From positions 31,428 through 95,427 of the forward strand of contig CAYRUB010000008.1 of the NCBI GenBank assembly GCA_964427405.1: a DNA stretch of 64,000 bases. Reading direction: 5' to 3'. This DNA comes from an uncultured Planctomycetales bacterium. GTDB taxonomy: Bacteria > Omnitrophota > Gorgyraeia > Gygaellales > Profunditerraquicolaceae. A program made the translations under genes and the position numbers. A model generated the notes under the pieces. It was not told where the DNA came from. It did no database searches and saw only the letters and a program-made list of their open reading frames with translations. This document shows, piece after piece, positions 3,731 through 48,342 of the stretch (within the stretch, counting starts at the first letter, position 1; each line of letters opens with the position of its first letter).

Positions 3731-3768
3731 TTGTTTTCTCCTTTCGAATAATCAATACAAAAATAAAA

Positions 3769-3842
<74 letters not shown>

Positions 3843-3922
3843 ATACCAATTGCGCACCGGCGCAACTCCAATAAGCGCCGGGTGCTGCATCGCTCGCTAT
3901 TATCAACTGTAAAATTTCATTT

Positions 3923-4004
3923 TGGGCGGAAGAGGATTTGAACCTCCAAGGGTTACCCCAATAGCTCCTAAGGCTATCGCGTATGCCAATTCCGCCATCC
4001 GCCC
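3923..4004 (-). tRNA. tRNA-Leu (anticodon TAG), long variable arm
   Basis: Revcomp reads GGGCGGATGGCGGAATTGGCATACGCGATAGCCTTAGGAGCTATTGGGGTAACCCTTGGAGGTTCAAATCCTCTTCCGCCCA. Anticodon loop CTTAGGA; acceptor GGGCGGA/TCCGCCC. Confidence 0.8.
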
Positions 4005-4034
4005 GGAATGTTCCTCTTTCCACCTACTAATAAC

Positions 4035-4200
4035 TTTGATAGCCTGTGGTATTGCGGAGCGCGCATTAGAAAACTTTCGGCAAATGAGTGCGAGGAATTA
4101 CGATGAGCGAAGGCCGACGCAGTGTATGGTCGGCCGAAAACGAATCGTAAACCGAAGCACTCGGCGAAAGTTTTCAGCGCGCGGAACAATACCACAGGAT
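4035..4200. repeat. R1 intergenic repeat, copy 1 (diverged), between tRNA-Leu and tRNA-Lys; imperfect ~40-nt terminal inverted repeats
   Basis: Shares aaactttcggcaaatgagtgcgaggaattacg with copy 2 (9220-9255) and cgtaaaccgaagcactcggcgaaa with copy 3 (11770-11800). Ends cctgtggtattgcggagcgcgc / gcgcgcggaacaataccacagg are inverted repeats. Confidence 0.6.
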
Positions 4201-4211
4201 ATCAAATTATT

Positions 4212-4283
4212 CTGAGCCTCCCGCGACTCGAACGCGGCACAACCACATTAAAAGTGTGGTGCTCTACCTGATGAGCTAGAGGC
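4212..4283 (-). tRNA. tRNA-Lys (anticodon TTT)
   Basis: Revcomp reads GGGCCTCTAGCTCATCAGGTAGAGCACCACACTTTTAATGTGGTTGTGCCGCGTTCGAGTCGCGGGAGGCTCA. Anticodon loop CTTTTAA. Confidence 0.75.
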
Positions 4284-4289
4284 CCGAAT

Positions 4290-40480: not shown

Positions 40481-41107
40481 TTATTTAGTCTTCTCCGTTA
40501 CATTAACAAAATAAATAAGATTTTCTAATTCAATCTCCAAATTAACATTATTAATAATACAACCTTCGGCGGCTTTAAGCCTTAGCGGCGCAAAATTAAG
40601 TATGCCTTTAATTCCCGAAGTACAGATTAAATCAACAGCCTGCTGGGCAGCTATATCCGGAACAACTAAAATAGCTATACGTATGCCATTAGATTTTATA
40701 AAAGACTTGACCTCCTCTAAAGGCAGGACCGGAACAGGATTAGAACGATTGATCTTAGCCGGGTCAATATCGAAACCGGCAACAATTTTTATGCCTTCTT
40801 TCTCAAATCCCCGATAGCGCATAAGCGCGCTGCCGATATGTCCGGCACCGACAACAATAACCTTCTGTAACTGATCCTTCCCGAGGATGCTGTTTAATTT
40901 CTCAAGCAGCGAATCAATCTGGTAACCTCCTTTTTTATTTCCGGAGATACCAAAAATTGAAAAATCTTTCCTTACCTGGGAAGCGGTGCCCCCTACGGCG
41001 TCTGCCAGGTTATCTGAGAAAACTTTCACAAAACCCAAGGCTTGTAATCTGTAAAGAGCGTTTTTATATCGGGAAAGCCGAATGATGCAGTTTTTATTAG
41101 TAATCAT
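40481..41107 (-). CDS. rex: Redox-sensing transcriptional repressor Rex
   Basis: 208 aa. N-terminal winged-helix RLSRYKNALYRL and Rossmann VIVVGAGHIGSAL NADH-binding domain. Confidence 0.8.
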   Translation of the reverse strand: MITNKNCIIRLSRYKNALYRLQALGFVKVFSDNLADAVGGTASQVRKDFSIFGISGNKKGGYQIDSLLEKLNSILGKDQLQKVIVVGAGHIGSALMRYRGFEKEGIKIVAGFDIDPAKINRSNPVPVLPLEEVKSFIKSNGIRIAILVVPDIAAQQAVDLICTSGIKGILNFAPLRLKAAEGCIINNVNLEIELENLIYFVNVTEKTK

Positions 41108-41109
41108 AT

Positions 41110-41127
41110 TGTTCTATTTTTCACAAT
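41110..41127. promoter_or_regulatory. Candidate Rex operator (TTGTTCTATTTTTCACAA) directly upstream of the rex ATG
   Basis: 14/18 match to the TTGTGAAatatTTCACAA consensus, with a perfect TTCACAA right half-site. Confidence 0.4.
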
Positions 41128-41187
41128 AACAAGACCAATATAACATTTCTGGTTTATTTGTCAAGAATATTTTTTAATTAAGTGATA

Positions 41188-42459
41188 TTATTTACTCCAA
41201 ACAAACCAAACAAATAAATACGCGGCAAATACTGCGGCAAAAGTAAAAGGAATTCCAATCTTCATAAAATCTTTAAGCCTGACTTCATATCCCTCTTTTT
41301 TAAGCAAGCCGCAAGTAACAATATTAGCCGAAGCGCCAATTGGCGTAATATTGCCTCCTAAACTTGCGCCGATAAGTATGCCAAAAAGAAACAATGGAGG
41401 GTTTACATTCAATTTATTAGCCATCTGGATTGCAACAGGTAACATAGCTGCTAAAAAAGGAACATTGTCCACAAACGCAGAGATAATGACTGAAATAAAT
41501 ACAAGTAACGTATAACCAAAGAAAATATTCCCCCCAATTACATTAGATAAGCATTGGGCGATGCTATCTACCCATCCGGTTAAAACAAGGCTTCCAACCA
41601 GAATAAATATTCCCATAAGAAATAACGTTGTATCCCAATCCAGCGATTTTATCAGTTCAAATACGCTCCTCTTATTCGCCATCTTCTCCCATATTGCTGA
41701 GATAACCCCCATAACCATACAAATAATCCCAGCCGCAGATGTGAAACCAGTATCAAAAAATGAGGAAACAGCAAGCAAAATTATCAATAGAACAAGCAAA
41801 ACAGTTGGGGTCCATGATTGCACCTTTTCTACAGGAACAACTTTAACCTTATGCCTCTCTTTCCGGAACAAAAACATCAAAACAAAAAATGAAGCAAGGG
41901 CGCCCAATTCAACCGCGAAAAATATGCTCGGTTTCCCTCTATAAAGAAAAAAATCACCGAAATTCATTTTCGTAAAACCTGCTAAAAGCATACTGGGAGG
42001 ATCTCCGATTAAAGTTGCCATACCTTGCAGATTACTTGATATTGCAATTGCAATCATCATTTTCATTGGATTAAGATTTATTTTACGGGCAAGCATTAAA
42101 GCAATAGGGGCAATGATAAGAACCGTTGCTACATTCTCCACAAAAGCAGAGATAAAACCAGTAAGGGCGCACAAAAGTAAAATTGCCCAAGCAGTATTCT
42201 TGGATTTATCAACAATAATCTCAGCAATAACCGCAGGCACTTTACTCCTCATAAAAACATCCGCCACGGCTAATGTCCCCACAAAAATCCCCATCACGTT
42301 CCAATTCACGGAGCCAAAAGCCTCAGGAAATGACAACACCCGGGTCATCAAAAGCAGGCCGGTTGCAATTATCGCAAACAGGGACCTTTTTCCAGGGAAC
42401 GCCACGAACAAAATATAGGCCAAAACAAAAAAGATAAACGCAATAATACTTCTATCCAT
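41188..42459 (-). CDS. ArsB/NhaD (CitMHS)-superfamily anion permease, ~12 TM
   Basis: 423 aa, highly hydrophobic, with internal duplication typical of ArsB/NhaD permeases. Its start is 2 nt after the stop of small ORF a. Confidence 0.65.
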   Translation of the reverse strand: MDRSIIAFIFFVLAYILFVAFPGKRSLFAIIATGLLLMTRVLSFPEAFGSVNWNVMGIFVGTLAVADVFMRSKVPAVIAEIIVDKSKNTAWAILLLCALTGFISAFVENVATVLIIAPIALMLARKINLNPMKMMIAIAISSNLQGMATLIGDPPSMLLAGFTKMNFGDFFLYRGKPSIFFAVELGALASFFVLMFLFRKERHKVKVVPVEKVQSWTPTVLLVLLIILLAVSSFFDTGFTSAAGIICMVMGVISAIWEKMANKRSVFELIKSLDWDTTLFLMGIFILVGSLVLTGWVDSIAQCLSNVIGGNIFFGYTLLVFISVIISAFVDNVPFLAAMLPVAIQMANKLNVNPPLFLFGILIGASLGGNITPIGASANIVTCGLLKKEGYEVRLKDFMKIGIPFTFAAVFAAYLFVWFVWSK

Positions 42460-42461
42460 TC

Positions 42462-42605
42462 CTATTTATTAACTTTATCCGAAGATTGAGTTTTATTTTC
42501 TTCTTTTCCGCCTTGATTACTTTTAACGATCATAAAAATGAAAAAAAATATTACTGCTGCCCCGAGAACATACACGGGCCAATCCTGCGCTAGATTACCT
42601 GTCAT
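42462..42605 (-). CDS. Small membrane peptide a (47 aa: MTGNLAQDWPVYVLGAAVIFFFIFMIVKSNQGGKEENKTQSSDKVNK), translationally coupled to the permease
   Basis: AGGGAGGA RBS 8 nt upstream. Single TM segment. TAG stop 2 nt before the permease ATG. Paralogous to peptide b. Confidence 0.5.
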   Translation of the reverse strand: MTGNLAQDWPVYVLGAAVIFFFIFMIVKSNQGGKEENKTQSSDKVNK

Positions 42606-42651
42606 CTTAGAATCCTCCCTTTCTTATTTTATCAACGATTCCATTCCCTAA

Positions 42652-42726
42652 TCAAATAAATAATACAAAATATGCCTACGCCTAAAAACACATAAATGGT
42701 CCAACCCTGCCATACGCTTCCGGTCA
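42652..42726 (-). CDS. Small membrane peptide b (24 aa: MTGSVWQGWTIYVFLGVGIFCIFI)
   Basis: AAGGAAGGGGA RBS. Shares the MTGxxxxxWxxYV(L/F)G motif with peptide a. Coordinates ±1. Confidence 0.4.
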
Positions 42727-42755
42727 TTCCAACTCCCCTTCCTTCTTTACTTTAT

Positions 42756-42866
42756 TTAGTCTTGCTTCTTGATTTTGGCTTTTCTAGTATTTATAAAATA
42801 AAAAAACACCGAAAACAAAATTGCCAATAACAATACTCCCAGATTTTGCAATACATGAAGCCACAT
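42756..42866 (-). CDS. Small membrane peptide c (36 aa: MWLHVLQNLGVLLLAILFSVFFYFINTRKAKIKKQD)
   Basis: Perfect AGGAGG RBS 5 nt upstream. One TM helix plus a basic tail. Confidence 0.45.
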   Translation of the reverse strand: MWLHVLQNLGVLLLAILFSVFFYFINTRKAKIKKQD

Positions 42867-42874
42867 GAAGCCTC

Positions 42875-42985
42875 CTATTTTTTAAGCCGTTTTAATACCT
42901 GAGAATCACCGCTTATGCCTTCTTTAAATATCCTGCTATAACAAAAAACTAGCATGCTCAAGATAAACGTCCAGGAAATTATCAT
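42875..42985 (-). CDS. Possible small peptide e (36 aa: MIISWTFILSMLVFCYSRIFKEGISGDSQVLKRLKK)
   Basis: The ORF ends in the TAG that forms part of the RBS of peptide c. Weak RBS of its own. Confidence 0.25.
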   Translation of the reverse strand: MIISWTFILSMLVFCYSRIFKEGISGDSQVLKRLKK

Positions 42986-43019
42986 AAATATCCAGCCGCT
43001 CAACCTCAATCCACACCCC

Positions 43020-43118
43020 TTATCTAATGTTATGAGTAATCGCAAAAATCACACACAAAACCCCTACCAAAATACAAACTCCGAATATAATAAATATAAT
43101 CCGCATTCCTTTATCCAT
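43020..43118 (-). CDS. Small membrane peptide d (32 aa: MDKGMRIIFIIFGVCILVGVLCVIFAITHNIR)
   Basis: AGGAGG RBS 4 nt upstream of the ATG. One TM helix. Confidence 0.45.
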   Translation of the reverse strand: MDKGMRIIFIIFGVCILVGVLCVIFAITHNIR

Positions 43119-43133
43119 TCTTCCTCCTGGCAA

Positions 43134-43192
43134 TAAAAAAACCATCTCGCATTAACATGCAAGATGGCGGCCCGACCATCTGAATCCTCCGG
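43134..43192 (-). terminator. Conserved double-hairpin plus U-tract motif (copy 1) after treT and upstream of peptide d
   Basis: Minus strand: AGATGG-tcgggccg-CCATCT hairpin, TGCAT-gtta-ATGCA hairpin, then GATGGTTTTTTT. Core catgcaagatggcggcccgaccatct is identical to the copy at 48171-48236. Confidence 0.4.
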
Positions 43193-43229
43193 AAATGCAC
43201 CCGCAGTTCCGAACCCTTATCCTAATAAA

Positions 43230-44444
43230 TTAACAGAGATGAACGATATCTTCGGGATAATATAACGAAAGAAATAATAACATATAATCCCGAAGATGGC
43301 GCGTAATCAGAAAGTTATTTTTTATATGCTCCCTTCCATTTGCTCCTAATTTCTTGGCGTATTCCGGACTGCTTAAGAGCTGTTTTATAGCAAAACTGGC
43401 TCCTTCGATTGAATAACAAAGCAAACCTGAATATTTGTGTTTTATTTGCAAAGGAATACCCCCGACATTTGAAGCTACAACAGGCTTTGCTTTCCATAAG
43501 GCCTCTGCGACCGTTAATCCGAATCCTTCCTTAAGGGACTTCTGGACAATTATATCTGCTGCCCTTTGTAAGGCATTGACCTCTATATCATTCTGGGGCA
43601 ATAGTAGAATATGAATATCCTGATCGTTCTTAGCTTTTTCTTGAACTTCCGATAAGACCTTGAATCCTTCCGGATCATCTTCGGCAGTGCCACCGGCCAG
43701 TATCAACTGACAATCAATATATTTTTTCACCTGCAGGTAGGCGTCAATTACACCTAACGGGTCTTTTAAACGATCAAAGCGGGATATTTGAATAAGGATT
43801 GGTTTATCTTTTTTTATATTGTATTTTCTTAAGACCAAGTTTATCGTTTCCTCCGGTAATTCCCTGTTTTTATCGCTTAATGGATCAATGGAAGGAGGAA
43901 TTAAAAATTGCCTAATGGGTAATTTCCGGGAAAAAGCTGGCGCAGAAAATACCGCTGAATCGTACTGAGTGATAAAATCCATAAGAAATCCCCAAACCTT
44001 TTCATTGGGGTCAGATACGTCAACATGACAACGCCAAAGCCATTTATTAATAGTCTTCTTTTTTATCAGTGCTATTGGCTGCGGATCGTGAACAAAGACT
44101 ATGTCTCCATAGGTATCAATATTTTCGATATTCTGCTGGCTTGTTTCCATAAATATCTCAAAATCCCTTTGAGTTATTTCTTCCGCTCTGCCATGCAAAG
44201 CATTATGAAACTTTTTAGTCACTTCAAAAAACTGTTCTCCGCCCTTTATTACGTCCCATTTGGTATCTACTCCCAATTCCCTCAATAGCGGAACCATCCG
44301 GTTTAATATCTCAGCGACTCCGCCACCCACCGGGGTAGAATTTATGTGTTGGACGACCTTGCCTTTTAACCGTTCGCCGAGTAATTTTAAATCATCAATA
44401 ACCGCCTGCCCTACCAAGGGAATATATTCTTCTATTTTTGCCAT
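43230..44444 (-). CDS. treT: Trehalose glycosyltransferring synthase TreT (GT4)
   Basis: 404 aa. VNSTPVGGGVAEILNRMVPLLRELGVDTKWDVIKGGEQFFEVTKKFHNALHG aligns closely to my recollection of archaeal/Thermotoga TreT (VNSTSFGGGVAEILHSLVPLL…FHNALQG). …PPSIDPLS… and …EGFGLTV… are also shared. Confidence 0.75.
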   Translation of the reverse strand: MAKIEEYIPLVGQAVIDDLKLLGERLKGKVVQHINSTPVGGGVAEILNRMVPLLRELGVDTKWDVIKGGEQFFEVTKKFHNALHGRAEEITQRDFEIFMETSQQNIENIDTYGDIVFVHDPQPIALIKKKTINKWLWRCHVDVSDPNEKVWGFLMDFITQYDSAVFSAPAFSRKLPIRQFLIPPSIDPLSDKNRELPEETINLVLRKYNIKKDKPILIQISRFDRLKDPLGVIDAYLQVKKYIDCQLILAGGTAEDDPEGFKVLSEVQEKAKNDQDIHILLLPQNDIEVNALQRAADIIVQKSLKEGFGLTVAEALWKAKPVVASNVGGIPLQIKHKYSGLLCYSIEGASFAIKQLLSSPEYAKKLGANGREHIKNNFLITRHLRDYMLLFLSLYYPEDIVHLC

Positions 44445-45116
44445 TTAATCAGCTATCCTTCTTGCCACTATTTGGATAATCGTATTTCTTAAATCCTCTA
44501 AAGTACGGGTATAAGGATCAAAACCGGAGATTTCACCGGCTAATTCTTTATCGCCTAAAGAGTTCTCTATCCAATATGAGAAATCATTAGTCGGCTTTTC
44601 AAGACGAAGCCGCGCTTCAAAAATATGAAAATAAATAGAATCAAGGGTAATCTTTTTCAAAACCTCAATAAACTCCTTTAAATCATAAGCAATATAGTTT
44701 GTCGGCAGGATAAAACTGACTGATTTAATAAAATGAAACTCTTCTCCGGGCCTGGCAAATTTCAACTTGGCAAACGGGCTATCCCTTAAATAGTCCTCAA
44801 TGGTTAAAGAAATTTTCTCTCGTAAATCACGAATGGTTGAATATTGCATGGTATCAATACTAACCAATTTTTCCCCAAGTTCATCTTCTCCAAGAACTTC
44901 CATAACCCAATAAGAGAAGTCATTGGGAGGCTCGGGAGAAAGATACTGATGCTGCTGCAGGAATCTATGGGTATGGTGATAAATGCAGGAACCGGGGACT
45001 TCCTTAATCAGAGCCAAAAGCTGGCCTAAGGTGGTGGCCCGCAATCCGGTCAACTCCGATAAGTGCAATCTCGTACAAAATTTAAATGGCTCTTTTGCTT
45101 TTGCTAATTTAATCAT
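44445..45116 (-). CDS. Uncharacterised protein with two tandem ~40-aa NDFSYW…LGxxELG repeats, embedded in the trehalose operon
   Basis: 223 aa. PPNDFSYWVMEVLGEDELGEKL… and KPTNDFSYWIENSLGDKELAGEI… repeats. The stop abuts the treT start and the start lies 6 nt after the otsB stop. Confidence 0.5.
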   Translation of the reverse strand: MIKLAKAKEPFKFCTRLHLSELTGLRATTLGQLLALIKEVPGSCIYHHTHRFLQQHQYLSPEPPNDFSYWVMEVLGEDELGEKLVSIDTMQYSTIRDLREKISLTIEDYLRDSPFAKLKFARPGEEFHFIKSVSFILPTNYIAYDLKEFIEVLKKITLDSIYFHIFEARLRLEKPTNDFSYWIENSLGDKELAGEISGFDPYTRTLEDLRNTIIQIVARRIAD

Positions 45117-45122
45117 GGCTAT

Positions 45123-45917
45123 CTATTTTTTGAATTCAGATATCAAACGTAAAAATTTAATTACCTCTCTGGGGTTCTTTAAATAGTAATTCGCCGCAGA
45201 ATTGCCGGGCTTCCCCACAAAAACAGTCAACCCTCTTCTTTTTAAAACCCTAAAAGCGTCTTCATCAGTTACGTCGTCTCCGATATAAATGGGTAAGACA
45301 TTTCTTTTTCCAAAAATGAATTGCTGTTTTTCTAGAAACCATAAAACAACTCTCCCTTTATCCCATTTAACTGGAGGTTTTATCTCATAAACTTTTTTAC
45401 CGGAATTAACTTTTATTTTGTCGCTCATCATATAGGGATTAGTAACTTCGTAAACAATCTTATCGAATACAGGCATATCCTTTTTACTAACTAAACGGTA
45501 GTGAATACTTAGGGTTAACCCCTTATCTTCAATTAGCGCGCCTTTGATGCCAAAGAACCGCTTCTGTATATTTGTAGCGATGTTTCGTAAAATTGATCTC
45601 AATCGCGGTGAAACCTGGCTTTCAAATTTAATCTTCGGGCCTTCAATCTCTAAGCCGTGATTACCTGCATAAATAATACCATCTACCCCTACTATATTTC
45701 TTATGTCTACCAGCTTCCTACCGCTGATAATACCTATTTTACAATAAAGACTTCCGGACAATTTCTGTAATAATCCTTTTGCATCCTTACGGATAATTGC
45801 CTTACTAGGAGTCTCTACAATAGGCGTTAATGTCCCATCGTAATCCAGCAAAAGTAAAATAAATTTATTGCTCAATAGTTCTTTTATCTTACTAAATTGC
45901 GGGAATAAATATTCCAT
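45123..45917 (-). CDS. otsB: Trehalose-6-phosphate phosphatase (HAD-IIB)
   Basis: LLLLDYDGTLTP DxDGT motif. 264 aa. 2 nt after the otsA stop. Confidence 0.8.
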   Translation of the reverse strand: MEYLFPQFSKIKELLSNKFILLLLDYDGTLTPIVETPSKAIIRKDAKGLLQKLSGSLYCKIGIISGRKLVDIRNIVGVDGIIYAGNHGLEIEGPKIKFESQVSPRLRSILRNIATNIQKRFFGIKGALIEDKGLTLSIHYRLVSKKDMPVFDKIVYEVTNPYMMSDKIKVNSGKKVYEIKPPVKWDKGRVVLWFLEKQQFIFGKRNVLPIYIGDDVTDEDAFRVLKRRGLTVFVGKPGNSAANYYLKNPREVIKFLRLISEFKK

Positions 45918-45919
45918 AT

Positions 45920-48157
45920 CTAAACCTTCCCCAATGATGTCAATTCTGTAATAATATTCCCTGCCCAGCGATAAATATTGTTCTCCGAAATAACTTTGCG
46001 CATTTTTCCCATGCGTCTTGTTTTCTCGTCCTGGGGCATCTGGAGAGCTAATTTTATACTGTCGGCAAATTCCTCTATTGAATAGGGATTTACCTGAATA
46101 GCATCGGGAAGCTCTCTGACTGCGCCGGTAAATTGACTTAATATAAGAGCTCCGGAGAAGTCACTTTTTGTTGCTACGTATTCTTTAGCCACAAGGTTCA
46201 TGCCATCATGAAGCGAGCTTACAATGCAAAGATCAGCCATTTTATAAAAAGGCTCGATTTCATCTAAAGAAAAATGCCTCTTAAGGTAAATAATTGGCTT
46301 CCAGCTGGAATCGGAATACTTCCAGTTAGTTTTCTCGATTAATTCGTCAATTTCTGCCATAAGATCATGATAACGCTTTATATGTACACGGCTTGGAGCG
46401 GCAAGCTGAACAAAAACAAATTTTTTCTTATATTCTGGATATTTTTCTAAAAATCTGTCTATAGCTTGCACTCTTTCAACAATGCCCTTTGTATAATCGA
46501 TCCTGTCAACTCCCAAACCTATGATTTTACCTTCCAGGTCAAACTCTTTTTTAATTTTATCTATCTCTAGTTTTATATCCGCGTCTTTCTCAGCTTTATT
46601 TAAATTCACGCTAACACTAATCGGAAACGCCCGCACAAAAGTTTCTTTTTCAGAACGAACAATGCTGAATTTTTCTATATCAACCCTTGATTCAAGAAGC
46701 CTGTTGACTGTATCTAAGAAATTATTACAATGATTCTGAACATGAAAACCTATTAAATCACATCCAAGCATTCCTTCCAGAATCTCTTTACGGTAAGGAC
46801 AAATGGAAAATGCATCTGGAGTAGGCCAGGGAATATGCCAAAAAAGTGCAATTACCGCATCCGGACGTTTTTCCTTAATCATCTTCCCGAGCAAAGTGAA
46901 ATGGTAATCTTGAATAAATACAAAAGGATGTTTAGCGGGAAGTTCCTCCAAAACAGAATCCGCAAACTTCTGATTTACTTTTTTGTAAGCTTGCCAATCT
47001 GACTCACGAAAAACCGGCCTCGTATGCGTATTGTGACACAGCGGCCATAACCCCTCATTGGAAAAACCATAATAGTAGCCATCTTCCTCTTCTTTATTCA
47101 ACCAAACCCTCTTAAGAATATACCGTATATCTTTAGGCGGAACACCTAATTTGTCCTTTGAATTTACGAACTTCTTATCCGCATTACCGCCACCATGAGC
47201 AATCCATGTACCGCCGCAAGCGCATAGAACCGGATGAATCGCAGTAACCACGCCGCTTGCAGGCCTGATGTATTTTTCTAAACCAGTTGCTTCATCAACA
47301 ACATGCATATAGGGCTCACGGTTAGATACTACAAATAAAGCTTTTTCTCCTAATTTCGCTCGAATAAGATCTTTTAATTTTGATTCTGTCCATGTCTCTT
47401 CTTTTTCTAGGCGGGCAGACGCTTCATCAGAAATTGTCCTACGGGCAACGCGCAAACTCAATGCCGCCTGCTCAACTTCACTGGCAAGCTTACCCAGATC
47501 CCCTTTTTCTCTAATAGGGTGCGCTTCGTCAGTTTCGCCTCTCTGGAAGAACTTAAACCAATCTGTTAAACGTTGTATTGGCAGAGCAAAAATCTGCCTG
47601 TGCAGAAGAATAGATAAAACAAAAATAACCACAACTAAAATTATTAACGTTGAACTGATACGTCTCCAAATCTCAGTTAACCTTGCGAAGACATAGGAAG
47701 TATCATGTATAACCTCAACCATTCCCAAAAGCTGCCCTTCATCATCAACTATGGGTAGAACATAGCTATAGACTTGATAGTCTTTGAATTTCTCTAATTC
47801 TCCCCGCGGAATTTTATTCGCTATAACATCCTTAATATAAGGCTTGCCTTTTTCTTTCCAATCGGCGAATCTTTTAGTAAGCGCGATGATGTTTCCATCT
47901 TTATCGTAAATAACGCAACCCTGTAATCTTTCGCGAGTCTCAAATTTCTCCGCAAGATAATTTGCATTTTTTAAATCATTGGCTAAAAGCACATGCTTCA
48001 CCGATAACTCCATGCTTTCGGCAACGATCCTGGCTTTTCGCTTTAAGTCGTCAGTAAGCTTCTCTTCTTCTAAACGCGTCTGAAAGAAACCAAAGAGCGT
48101 AAAGGCCACGGAAACAATAATTAAAATGGGTAAAATAAATAAAAGAACTCTTCTCAT
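45920..48157 (-). CDS. otsA: Trehalose-6-phosphate synthase (GT20) fused to an N-terminal membrane sensor module (TM - ~140-aa extracytoplasmic domain - TM - HAMP-like linker)
   Basis: 745 aa. TM1 LLFILPILIIVSVAFTLFGFF, TM2 LIILVVVIFVLSILL, amphipathic linker LPIQRLTDWF…LASEVEQAALSL. From ~res 260, the GT20 core FVVSNREPY…, WIAHGGG, …NEGLWPL… and …LFWHIPWPT…. Confidence 0.8.
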   Translation of the reverse strand: MRRVLLFILPILIIVSVAFTLFGFFQTRLEEEKLTDDLKRKARIVAESMELSVKHVLLANDLKNANYLAEKFETRERLQGCVIYDKDGNIIALTKRFADWKEKGKPYIKDVIANKIPRGELEKFKDYQVYSYVLPIVDDEGQLLGMVEVIHDTSYVFARLTEIWRRISSTLIILVVVIFVLSILLHRQIFALPIQRLTDWFKFFQRGETDEAHPIREKGDLGKLASEVEQAALSLRVARRTISDEASARLEKEETWTESKLKDLIRAKLGEKALFVVSNREPYMHVVDEATGLEKYIRPASGVVTAIHPVLCACGGTWIAHGGGNADKKFVNSKDKLGVPPKDIRYILKRVWLNKEEEDGYYYGFSNEGLWPLCHNTHTRPVFRESDWQAYKKVNQKFADSVLEELPAKHPFVFIQDYHFTLLGKMIKEKRPDAVIALFWHIPWPTPDAFSICPYRKEILEGMLGCDLIGFHVQNHCNNFLDTVNRLLESRVDIEKFSIVRSEKETFVRAFPISVSVNLNKAEKDADIKLEIDKIKKEFDLEGKIIGLGVDRIDYTKGIVERVQAIDRFLEKYPEYKKKFVFVQLAAPSRVHIKRYHDLMAEIDELIEKTNWKYSDSSWKPIIYLKRHFSLDEIEPFYKMADLCIVSSLHDGMNLVAKEYVATKSDFSGALILSQFTGAVRELPDAIQVNPYSIEEFADSIKLALQMPQDEKTRRMGKMRKVISENNIYRWAGNIITELTSLGKV

Positions 48158-48170
48158 TTTTCACCTCAAC

Positions 48171-48236
48171 AAAACAAAAATCGCCACCCTGCATTCCCAT
48201 GCAAGATGGCGGCCCGACCATCTAACGATCCTCTGG
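48171..48236 (-). terminator. Conserved double-hairpin plus U-rich motif (copy 2) between atpC and otsA
   Basis: Same AGATGG-tcgggccg-CCATCT and TGCAT-ggga-ATGCA hairpins, then GGGTGGCGATTTTTGTTTTGTT, about 15 nt before the otsA ATG. Confidence 0.4.
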
Positions 48237-48342
48237 GAATATTTACTTATTCCCAAACCACTTATACTAAATTATATAATGCAATATACCACGATTAGAT
48301 AGAAATTCAACAAATTAATAGAGTAATATTTTATATTTATAC

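Follow-up and report, generated by a model that had tools for sequence, protein, structure and literature searches.

A recurring cassette of predicted single-pass membrane micro-proteins in a cation-riboswitch trehalose operon of Omnitrophota

Results

Five micro-protein genes between treT and a permease gene

The window analysed here is a 64,000-nt stretch of contig CAYRUB010000008.1 (assembly GCA_964427405.1, positions 31,428 to 95,427 of the forward strand), from a bacterium deposited as an uncultured Planctomycetales and placed by GTDB in the Omnitrophota. On its minus strand the trehalose gene treT and the gene of a permease of the ion-transporter superfamily are separated by 770 nt (43229-42460), and this interval carries five genes for very small hydrophobic proteins, here called d, e, c, b and a in their 5′ to 3′ order (Table 1). 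An earlier reading made from the letters of the window (the sequence-only reading) had described a 760-nt gap without a large open reading frame (ORF) and, within it, five minus-strand mini-ORFs of 24-47 aa. The absence of a large ORF was confirmed, and the five ORFs, each led by a Shine-Dalgarno sequence (SD), were found where they had been placed. However, the gap is slightly longer, its first ~100 nt are occupied by a riboswitch and a terminator that had been overlooked, and the peptides are of 31-47 aa. The ORFs account for 585 of the 657 nt of the region 42462-43118, which is AT-rich (35% GC), and are separated by gaps of 10, 8, 28 and 26 nt; the embedding of the e stop codon in the SD of c had been noted correctly.

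Such an array is not expected by chance. When ORFs that were SD-led, hydrophobic and of at least 24 aa were counted, the real sequence gave five, whereas 1000 dinucleotide shuffles averaged 0.03 and never gave more than 1; the identical count on the opposite strand of the region gave none. The plus-strand ORF 42954-43136, which had already been judged not credible, lacks a SD, and most of it is lost in close relatives through a clean deletion of d. The Rfam scan of the ORF region revealed nothing credible besides the riboswitch. Each of the five peptides has a single hydrophobic 19-residue window (Kyte-Doolittle 2.1-3.4), in agreement with the one transmembrane (TM) helix predicted earlier for each. 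The Lys and Arg residues lie mostly C-terminal to this window, which suggests a N-out/C-in topology, so that the short N-terminus would probably be outside and the basic tail inside. Peptides a and b had been proposed to be paralogues, and they share 39% identity (BLASTP E=1e-7) and are matched by one hidden Markov model (HMM), b with E=6.5e-15.

Table 1. Features of the window discussed in the text (positions are those of the window; topology and TM helices are predictions)
Feature	Position	Strand	Description
Micro-protein d	43020-43118	minus	32 aa, ATG, MDKGMRIIFIIFGVCILVGVLCVIFAITHNIR; one TM helix; SD AGGAGG 4 nt upstream
Micro-protein e	42875-43009	minus	44 aa, TTG, M-RLSGWIFMIISWTFILSMLVFCYSRIFKEGISGDSQVLKRLKK; one TM helix and basic C-terminal tail; SD AAGGGG 6 nt upstream
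Micro-protein c	42756-42866	minus	36 aa, ATG, MWLHVLQNLGVLLLAILFSVFFYFINTRKAKIKKQD; SD TAGGAGG contains the e stop codon
Micro-protein b	42632-42727	minus	31 aa, ATG, MTGSVWQGWTIYVFLGVGIFCIIYLIREWNR; short paralogue of a; purine-rich SD AAGGAAGGGGAG
Micro-protein a	42462-42605	minus	47 aa, ATG, MTGNLAQDWPVYVLGAAVIFFFIFMIVKSNQGGKEENKTQSSDKVNK; one TM helix and Lys/Glu-rich tail, predicted cytoplasmic; SD GGAGG 8 nt upstream
Permease	41188-42459	minus	423 aa; ion-transporter superfamily (CitMHS/ArsB/NhaD/DASS-like)
nhaA-I riboswitch, copy 1 (Li+-I/Na+-II class)	43162-43216	minus	RF03057, 48.9 bits, model positions 1-55 of 55
Intrinsic terminator 1	43131-43168	minus	12-bp stem (43168-43141), then U-tract; directly upstream of d
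Riboswitch 2 region	48182-48310	minus	promoter-like site 48310-48283; aptamer 48204-48260 (48.7 bits); terminator 48211-48182
otsA-like gene	45920-48157	minus	Pfam; N-terminal membrane/sensor part
otsB	45123-45917	minus	Pfam and ORF list
DUF5752 gene	44445-45116	minus	Pfam, 225 bits
treT	43230-44444	minus	Pfam and ORF list
Region of a strong promoter-like site	40481-41164	minus	TTGACA-16-TATATT, 11 of 12 matches, TG
Three-tRNA gene cluster	3768-4285	minus	

The micro-protein genes are conserved and evolve as coding sequences

The ORFs, their frames, their SDs and their start codons are kept in close relatives (L001-L008) and at the orthologous loci L009-L018, which were found via the permease (81-93% permease identity), so that the conservation anticipated by the sequence-only reading was indeed found. 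An exact look-up showed that d, c, b and a had already been called, as 'hypothetical' proteins, in metagenome-assembled genomes (MAGs) of Candidatus Omnitrophota. The d gene together with its SD is cleanly missing in relatives of the L001 type and present in L003, L011, L013, L015 and L097, and a gene unit would be expected to come and go as precisely as this. Most homologues of e (MKLSGW...) have an ATG at the codon that is its TTG start here, and the e family has 18 invariant columns.

The ratio of nonsynonymous to synonymous differences (pN/pS) was lowest in the proposed frame of every ORF: 0.29 for a (0.93 and 1.08 in the other frames), 0.35 for b (0.75 and 0.89), 0.33 for c (1.02 and 1.39), 0.23 for d (0.81 and 1.84) and 0.26 for e (0.55 and 2.17). 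A more divergent set gave 0.13 for e, and the permease gave 0.14. All of these ratios were pooled over non-independent pairs of a narrow clade and are indicative only. In addition, changes at third codon positions were in excess in the micro-ORF comparisons. By these measures all five ORFs are clearly under frame-specific purifying selection.

Undescribed families of small membrane proteins

Homologues of the peptides are numerous. The a/b family comprises 105 clusters at 90% identity and, in an exhaustive HMM scan, 138 representatives at 50%; the e family comprises 84 clusters in the protein database, and 26 clusters were obtained for c in a search led by a 47-aa member. The a/b and e families retain 30-60% identity across more than 100 clusters. 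The families were also compared with hhalign: c may be distantly related to a/b (80% probability, E=1.4e-5), and e is unrelated to the others.

No Pfam or NCBIfam cut-off was reached by the five peptides, by 19 close a/b members or by 120 distant members of the a family. The sub-threshold matches (MHJ_0274, SA1362, YxzE, YajC, OadG, FixQ) all reflect a generic make-up, a TM helix with a charged tail. The profile comparison with known small-protein families, which the sequence-only reading had proposed, gave no identity. The label YajC that one source attaches to c was discarded (TIGR00739, 13.3 vs 44.2 bits; PF02699, 12.5 vs 28.2 bits). The NCBIfam 'symporter small accessory protein' (NF045580) was likewise rejected, since its best score was 15.8 bits (b, E=0.012) against a cut-off of 35; three of the 19 close members matched it marginally, and it was not among the top families for the 120 distant members. 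Other misnomers were also encountered in the databases: c has been called a 'TrbL component', and e a 'choline-glycine betaine transporter' by the Joint Genome Institute (JGI). In the literature on small proteins, on the Na+-II riboswitch and on Omnitrophota and trehalose nothing was found about these peptides.

A possible sixth micro-protein family (MRTTDLKNVVLGIATTIMYPVAMMLAAYLICLLVSGLR, VRLGSLKNAVLGIAVTILYPTVIIVAGFLICLLILR) follows a at L099:4123-4239 and lies 150-39 nt upstream of the permease in L018, and in L089 a 30-aa ORF (MAKWQIIIVVWIFIWLFLYIMSRRQEKKNR) follows e. Together these peptides define four or five undescribed small-protein families (a/b, c, d, e and possibly the sixth).

A nhaA-I riboswitch with a terminator precedes the micro-protein genes

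The Rfam covariance-model scan of the window detected two nhaA-I aptamers, both above the gathering score of RF03057 (37 bits). Copy 1 begins 14 nt past the treT stop codon, and P1, P2, the conserved 5′ GGGU, the AGG linker and the CGGGCC loop of the model are all present in it. Across nine related aptamer copies 26 columns are invariant, and P1 is variable with its pairing kept; orthologous aptamers were found in L009, L010, L011, L013, L015, L018 and L070. The 5′ arm of terminator 1 (GCCAUCU) is the 3′ strand of the aptamer helix P2, and in the minimum-free-energy fold of the leader (43220-43125) the terminator hairpin was formed and not P2. The SD of d starts right past the terminator U-run. 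Copy 2 heads the trehalose operon (otsA-like, otsB, DUF5752 gene, treT) and is arranged like copy 1, with a terminator that overlaps the aptamer.

White et al. (2022, Sci Rep, PMC9646797) described the nhaA-I RNAs as ON switches that sense Li+, and found that their rare terminator-bearing variants, named Na+-II, are switched on by Na+ in vitro. In that work the terminator expression platform of the D. propionicus variant functioned in vitro, and its C54U mutant was responsive to Li+, Na+ and NH4+. The published downstream genes are otsA (16), a 'putative citrate transporter' (5), mscS, oadG and 171 'hypothetical' genes, and the authors themselves proposed Na+ or osmotic stress for the otsA-linked copies (PMC9646797). 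The present locus fits these associations (otsA, citrate transporter, hypothetical). Its RNA resembles the Li+-I/Na+-II riboswitches in the full-length model match above the gathering score, and the Na+-responsive D. propionicus variant in having a terminator that uses the 3′ arm of P2.

Position 54, placed from the published oligonucleotide, is the last base of the 5′ strand of P2, before the CGGGCC loop. This specificity base is U in the window and in all nine aligned relatives (GGU-CGGGCC vs AGC-CGGGCC in D. propionicus), so that the RNA agrees with Na+-II in model, structure and terminator platform but not in the nucleotide C54. The published terminator-type variants are restricted to Deltaproteobacteria and carry C54, whereas the copies described here are from Omnitrophota, carry the U of the Li+-I consensus and, unlike the published Na+-II variants, stand two in series within one predicted operon. 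The small-protein genes that follow the RNA here had not been described. By analogy with the published homologues a response to a cation would be expected of this RNA. Since U occupies the only known Na+-II specificity position, the sequence does not decide between the ligands; the linkage to trehalose genes speaks for Na+ or osmotic stress.

Several database ORFs that start with 'MVGPPS...' (L001:5545-5739; P0093, P0116, P0246, P0256, P0325) are gene-caller artefacts, in which the conserved aptamer (AUGGUCGGGCCGCCAUC) has been translated as an in-frame fusion to an a or e peptide. These fusions show independently that the peptides are encoded by the first gene past the aptamer in several lineages.

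The permease and its coupling to peptide a

The permease had been named an ArsB/NhaD permease, and this holds at the superfamily level: it matches Pfam CitMHS (PF03600) with 199.9 bits (gathering score 31.9) and, more weakly, ArsB, Na_sulph_symp and DctM, and among solved structures it is closest to VcINDY/NadC (E 1e-12) and ArsB (E 4e-7). At the family level, however, it remained below the cut-offs of NhaD_1 (NF038006, 25.1 vs 80 bits) and of the ArsB models (54-64 vs 415-760 bits).

As had been pointed out, 2 nt separate the stop codon of a from the permease ATG (42459). No spaced SD precedes this ATG (upstream letters AATAAATAGGA-ATG), and the 2-nt gap is kept in 9 of the 10 orthologous loci. 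The geometry is that of translational coupling. The sequence-only reading had extended co-translation with the transporter to the whole set, but the predicted coupling is limited to peptide a.

The cassette recurs next to different transporters

A metagenome scan was seeded on e, and the 80 loci obtained (L102-L181, from samples such as Hainich groundwater and JGI sediment) were analysed with local HMMs; 68 of them had enough downstream sequence. The genes are colinear across these loci, in the order [d]-e-[c]-a/b(-a/b...): a/b was found downstream of e in 61 of the 68, c between e and a/b in 42 (~60%), and d upstream of e in 24. With a covariance model of our own, built from the validated aptamers, an aptamer was detected directly upstream of the cassette at 31 of the 80 loci, once in tandem. 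The large upstream gene was treT in 44 of 59 loci. Downstream the picture was more varied, and the large gene, scored in 35 loci, was CitMHS in 15 and Na_Ca_ex in 10. The remaining 10 had another gene or none, with one P-type cation ATPase and one MscS among them and otherwise unrelated genes.

Individual loci illustrate this exchange of neighbours. The order is riboswitch, d, e, a, CitMHS permease in L097; treT, Na/Pi cotransporter, e, c, a, Na+/Ca2+ exchanger in L089; and treT, e, a, ClC, DUF1646 in L101. Three loci have no transporter: in L099 the riboswitch is followed by a P-II-like gene, e, c, a and the sixth small ORF, in L096 a RnfA-like gene is followed by e, a, c and nothing further, and in L093 d and e stand alone after treT. 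As cassette composition and order are kept while the transporter changes or is absent, the peptides would be expected to act together, and not as private subunits of the permease. The homologues of the permease at 66-72% identity, which are paralogues and often lie within the same MAGs, served as a negative control: about 70 of their loci had neither the cassette nor the riboswitch. The exceptions, L024 and L070, have one a-type peptide each, directly upstream; the riboswitch was found at L070, and at L024 the upstream sequence is only ~258 nt.

Variants of the cassette were also observed. It is duplicated locally at L164:1812-3040 (d-e-a-e-a-d-e, with an internal aptamer), and two tandem aptamers precede e at L172:1311-1484. 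A lone Rnf-Nqr membrane subunit (PF02508, 190 bits), with no other rnf or nqr genes nearby, is encoded within or just before the cassette at L012:1370-1978, L017:3212-3820, L016:34-516 and L096:74-316. A 93-96-aa P-II-like gene (PF00543, E 6.5e-11) occupies the interval between the riboswitch and the cassette at L013:2992-3282, L015:3010-3300 and L099:3112-3393. In aptamer-less cassettes a conserved 62-aa two-helix ORF (MGIFKTKTWSVVDIMLLKWSS...) comes right after treT (L089:3082-3270, L092:4786-4974).

The upstream trehalose operon and the surroundings

The order otsA-like/otsB/DUF5752/treT is also found in L001, L089, L093 and L097. Our promoter scan, which was not tuned to this phylum, detected no promoter-like site from treT to riboswitch 1, and the simplest reading would be that a single long transcription unit contains the two switches in series. 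The otsA-like product (745 aa) has a hydrophobic, sensor-like N-terminal extension before Glyco_transf_20, and its relatives show faint dCache/sCache matches; it would be a membrane-anchored trehalose-6-phosphate synthase. The uncharacterised DUF5752 gene always stands between otsB and treT in such operons (window, L001, L089, L093, L101). A gene for a MscS-type mechanosensitive channel lies between the otsA-like gene and otsB at L001:1746-2801 and L093:1013-2068 and not in the window, so that the content of the stress island is modular.

The strong promoter-like site downstream of the locus (Table 1) is 24 nt past the permease stop codon and precedes genes for a Rex-type redox repressor and for NuoE/NuoF-like hydrogenase proteins; it marks the putative 3′ end of the stress operon. 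The tRNA gene cluster listed in Table 1 is a further feature of the window.

Discussion

The sequence-only reading had taken the ORFs for a polycistronic set of membrane micro-proteins, and their conservation, their frame-specific selection and their conserved SDs and start codons bear this out. The interpretation that we favour is that they are five genuine single-pass membrane micro-protein genes, which form a conserved cassette, [d]-e-[c]-[b]-a, in a cation-riboswitch salt/osmotic-stress operon of Omnitrophota; we put its probability at roughly 0.78. In the model that we propose, transcription would arrive from the trehalose operon, after the promoter-like site, riboswitch 2, the otsA-like gene, otsB, the DUF5752 gene and treT. 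At low Na+ or Li+ the leader would form the 12-bp terminator, and transcription would stop before d; upon cation binding P2 would hold the GCCAUCU segment, the terminator would not form, and read-through would follow, as in an ON switch. Every micro-ORF would then be translated from its own strong SD, and the permease, which has none, could be started by ribosomes that terminate at the a stop codon 2 nt upstream. The micro-proteins would insert into the cytoplasmic membrane and act there as a set during Na+ or osmotic stress. The peptides most likely work with each other, probably as a small hetero-oligomer, and would serve the stress response as a general module for the membrane or for ion homeostasis.

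Several points weigh against this interpretation. The pN/pS values come from pooled, non-independent pairs of a narrow clade, and the evidence for a hetero-oligomer, as for any part in ion handling, is the co-occurrence of the genes. The base at the specificity position of the aptamer is U and not C, so that it may bind Li+, Na+ or both. An aptamer immediately upstream is missing from over half of the cassettes, for which control is assumed to operate via the operon leader; in most of these loci the otsA leader lies outside the sequence covered. An internal promoter inside treT is possible, the promoter scan not being tuned to Omnitrophota. A functional link between a and the permease in this particular lineage would also be compatible with their tight coupling across 2 nt. 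Finally, the source host is uncultivated, and its genes are known here from their letters.

This coupling leaves room for a local link, and we therefore keep as the main rival the view that the peptides, a and b especially, serve the CitMHS/ArsB/NhaD-type permease as dedicated subunits, accessory or regulatory, held at a fixed ratio by coupling, in the manner of KdpF, MetS or AcrZ. Besides the stop codon 2 nt before a SD-less ATG and its spacing in nine of ten loci, this view could draw on CitMHS being the commonest downstream gene (15/35), on the a-type peptides directly upstream of the paralogous permeases of L024 and L070, the latter with a riboswitch, and on the weak match of b to the 'symporter small accessory protein' (E=0.012). 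However, that match (15.8 vs 35 bits) does not recur among 120 family members, about 70 paralogous permeases lack a peptide, and the a family is found directly before the Na_Ca_ex gene of L089 and of 10 metagenome loci and before the ClC gene of L101, while in L096 and L099 it is operon-final without a transporter and in L093 d and e stand alone. The sequence-only reading had suggested subunits of this very permease, and a cassette that also occurs with Na+/Ca2+ exchangers, with ClC plus DUF1646, after a Na/Pi cotransporter or with no transporter speaks against it, so that we consider this explanation unlikely. It is much less probable still that the ORFs act in regulation, as upstream ORFs or leader peptides whose translation alone matters (through Rho exclusion or the delivery of ribosomes to the SD-less permease) and whose products have no role. 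The long leader between the riboswitch and the permease and the reinitiation geometry at a would suit such a role, but purifying selection extends along the whole peptide length (in-frame pN/pS 0.13-0.35 vs ~1 off frame), many residues are invariant in families that keep 30-60% identity over more than 100 clusters, and in L093, L096 and L099 the cassette exists without a downstream gene to regulate.

The sequence-only reading had also offered a toxin or bacteriocin-like role, and small hydrophobic peptides in tandem, as well as a weak Pfam match to the YxzE-like 'putative bacteriocin' family (a, E=0.014; sub-threshold in 29 of the 120 family members), could be taken to indicate secreted or membrane-active toxins, bacteriocins or type I toxin-like peptides. 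That match (PF25184) reaches 16.9 of the 40 bits required and reflects the generic TM helix with a charged tail; there is no double-glycine or signal leader, no gene for an ABC exporter, immunity or modification was found in ~100 loci, and the genes keep one place, behind treT, within a housekeeping stress operon under a cation riboswitch, all of which makes a toxin highly improbable. The last alternative, that the region is non-coding or holds the decayed fragments of a larger membrane-protein gene, with the ORFs as chance products or relics, can be regarded as effectively refuted. The 35% GC of the region and the JGI name 'choline-glycine betaine transporter' on several e-family entries might point to it, but the shuffle test, the frame-specific selection and the conserved SDs and starts oppose it, and no BCCT or other Pfam match was obtained even at E<=10.

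The cassette of micro-protein genes can be compared with several known systems. It resembles KdpF (KdpFABC), MetS (the MetPS NSS transporter), the NF045580 proteins and OadG in the size of the peptides (30-50 aa), the single TM helix, the basic tail, the transporter in the same operon and the translational coupling of a to the permease. It differs from them in that there is no sequence membership (oadG_fam and OAD_gamma match only marginally) and in that three to five different families are present that are not tied to one transporter family. In psbEFLJ of photosystem II, petG/L/M/N of cytochrome b6f and CydX/CydH of cytochrome bd, one-helix subunits decorate a known large complex. Distinct single-TM micro-proteins are likewise encoded side by side in a conserved order here, and this likeness to operons of the psbEFLJ type suggests co-assembly; however, there is no constant large partner, the steadiest neighbour being treT (44/59). 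The Pmp3/YqaE proteolipids of salt stress and MgtS are small hydrophobic proteins made under ionic stress, as the micro-proteins would be; Pmp3 has two TM helices, in contrast to the one found here, no Pfam match links the proteins, and induction by a riboswitch is predicted for the present set.

A more far-reaching idea, which we regard as doubtful, is that an e-(c)-a core, with d and b optional, forms a hitherto unknown hetero-oligomeric membrane complex that consists of one-helix micro-proteins alone and is the main effector of a regulon under Na+/Li+ riboswitches. Such a complex could be a minimal pore for the leak or efflux of cations, or a universal adaptor by which several unrelated Na+-linked transporters (CitMHS, CaCA, ClC, DUF1646) are tuned in salt stress, and it would explain a good part of the 171 'hypothetical' genes behind nhaA-I riboswitches.

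The riboswitch class is known, and what is new are the families of small membrane proteins in a stress operon. Their unusual feature is an ordered, multi-family cassette that recurs beside different transporters. Small membrane proteins are systematically under-annotated, and those of this cassette have been left unnamed, mis-named (YajC, BetT-like, 'TrbL') or fused to a translated riboswitch. The genes give an identity to some of the unnamed members of the nhaA-I regulon, which stand behind Li+/Na+ riboswitches as 'hypothetical', and the aptamers extend the terminator-type nhaA-I switches from Deltaproteobacteria to Omnitrophota. The hosts are uncultivated, and the function of the cassette can be approached only heterologously; its predicted inducer is built in and chemically defined, which may make it a tractable entry to multi-peptide membrane modules in ion stress.

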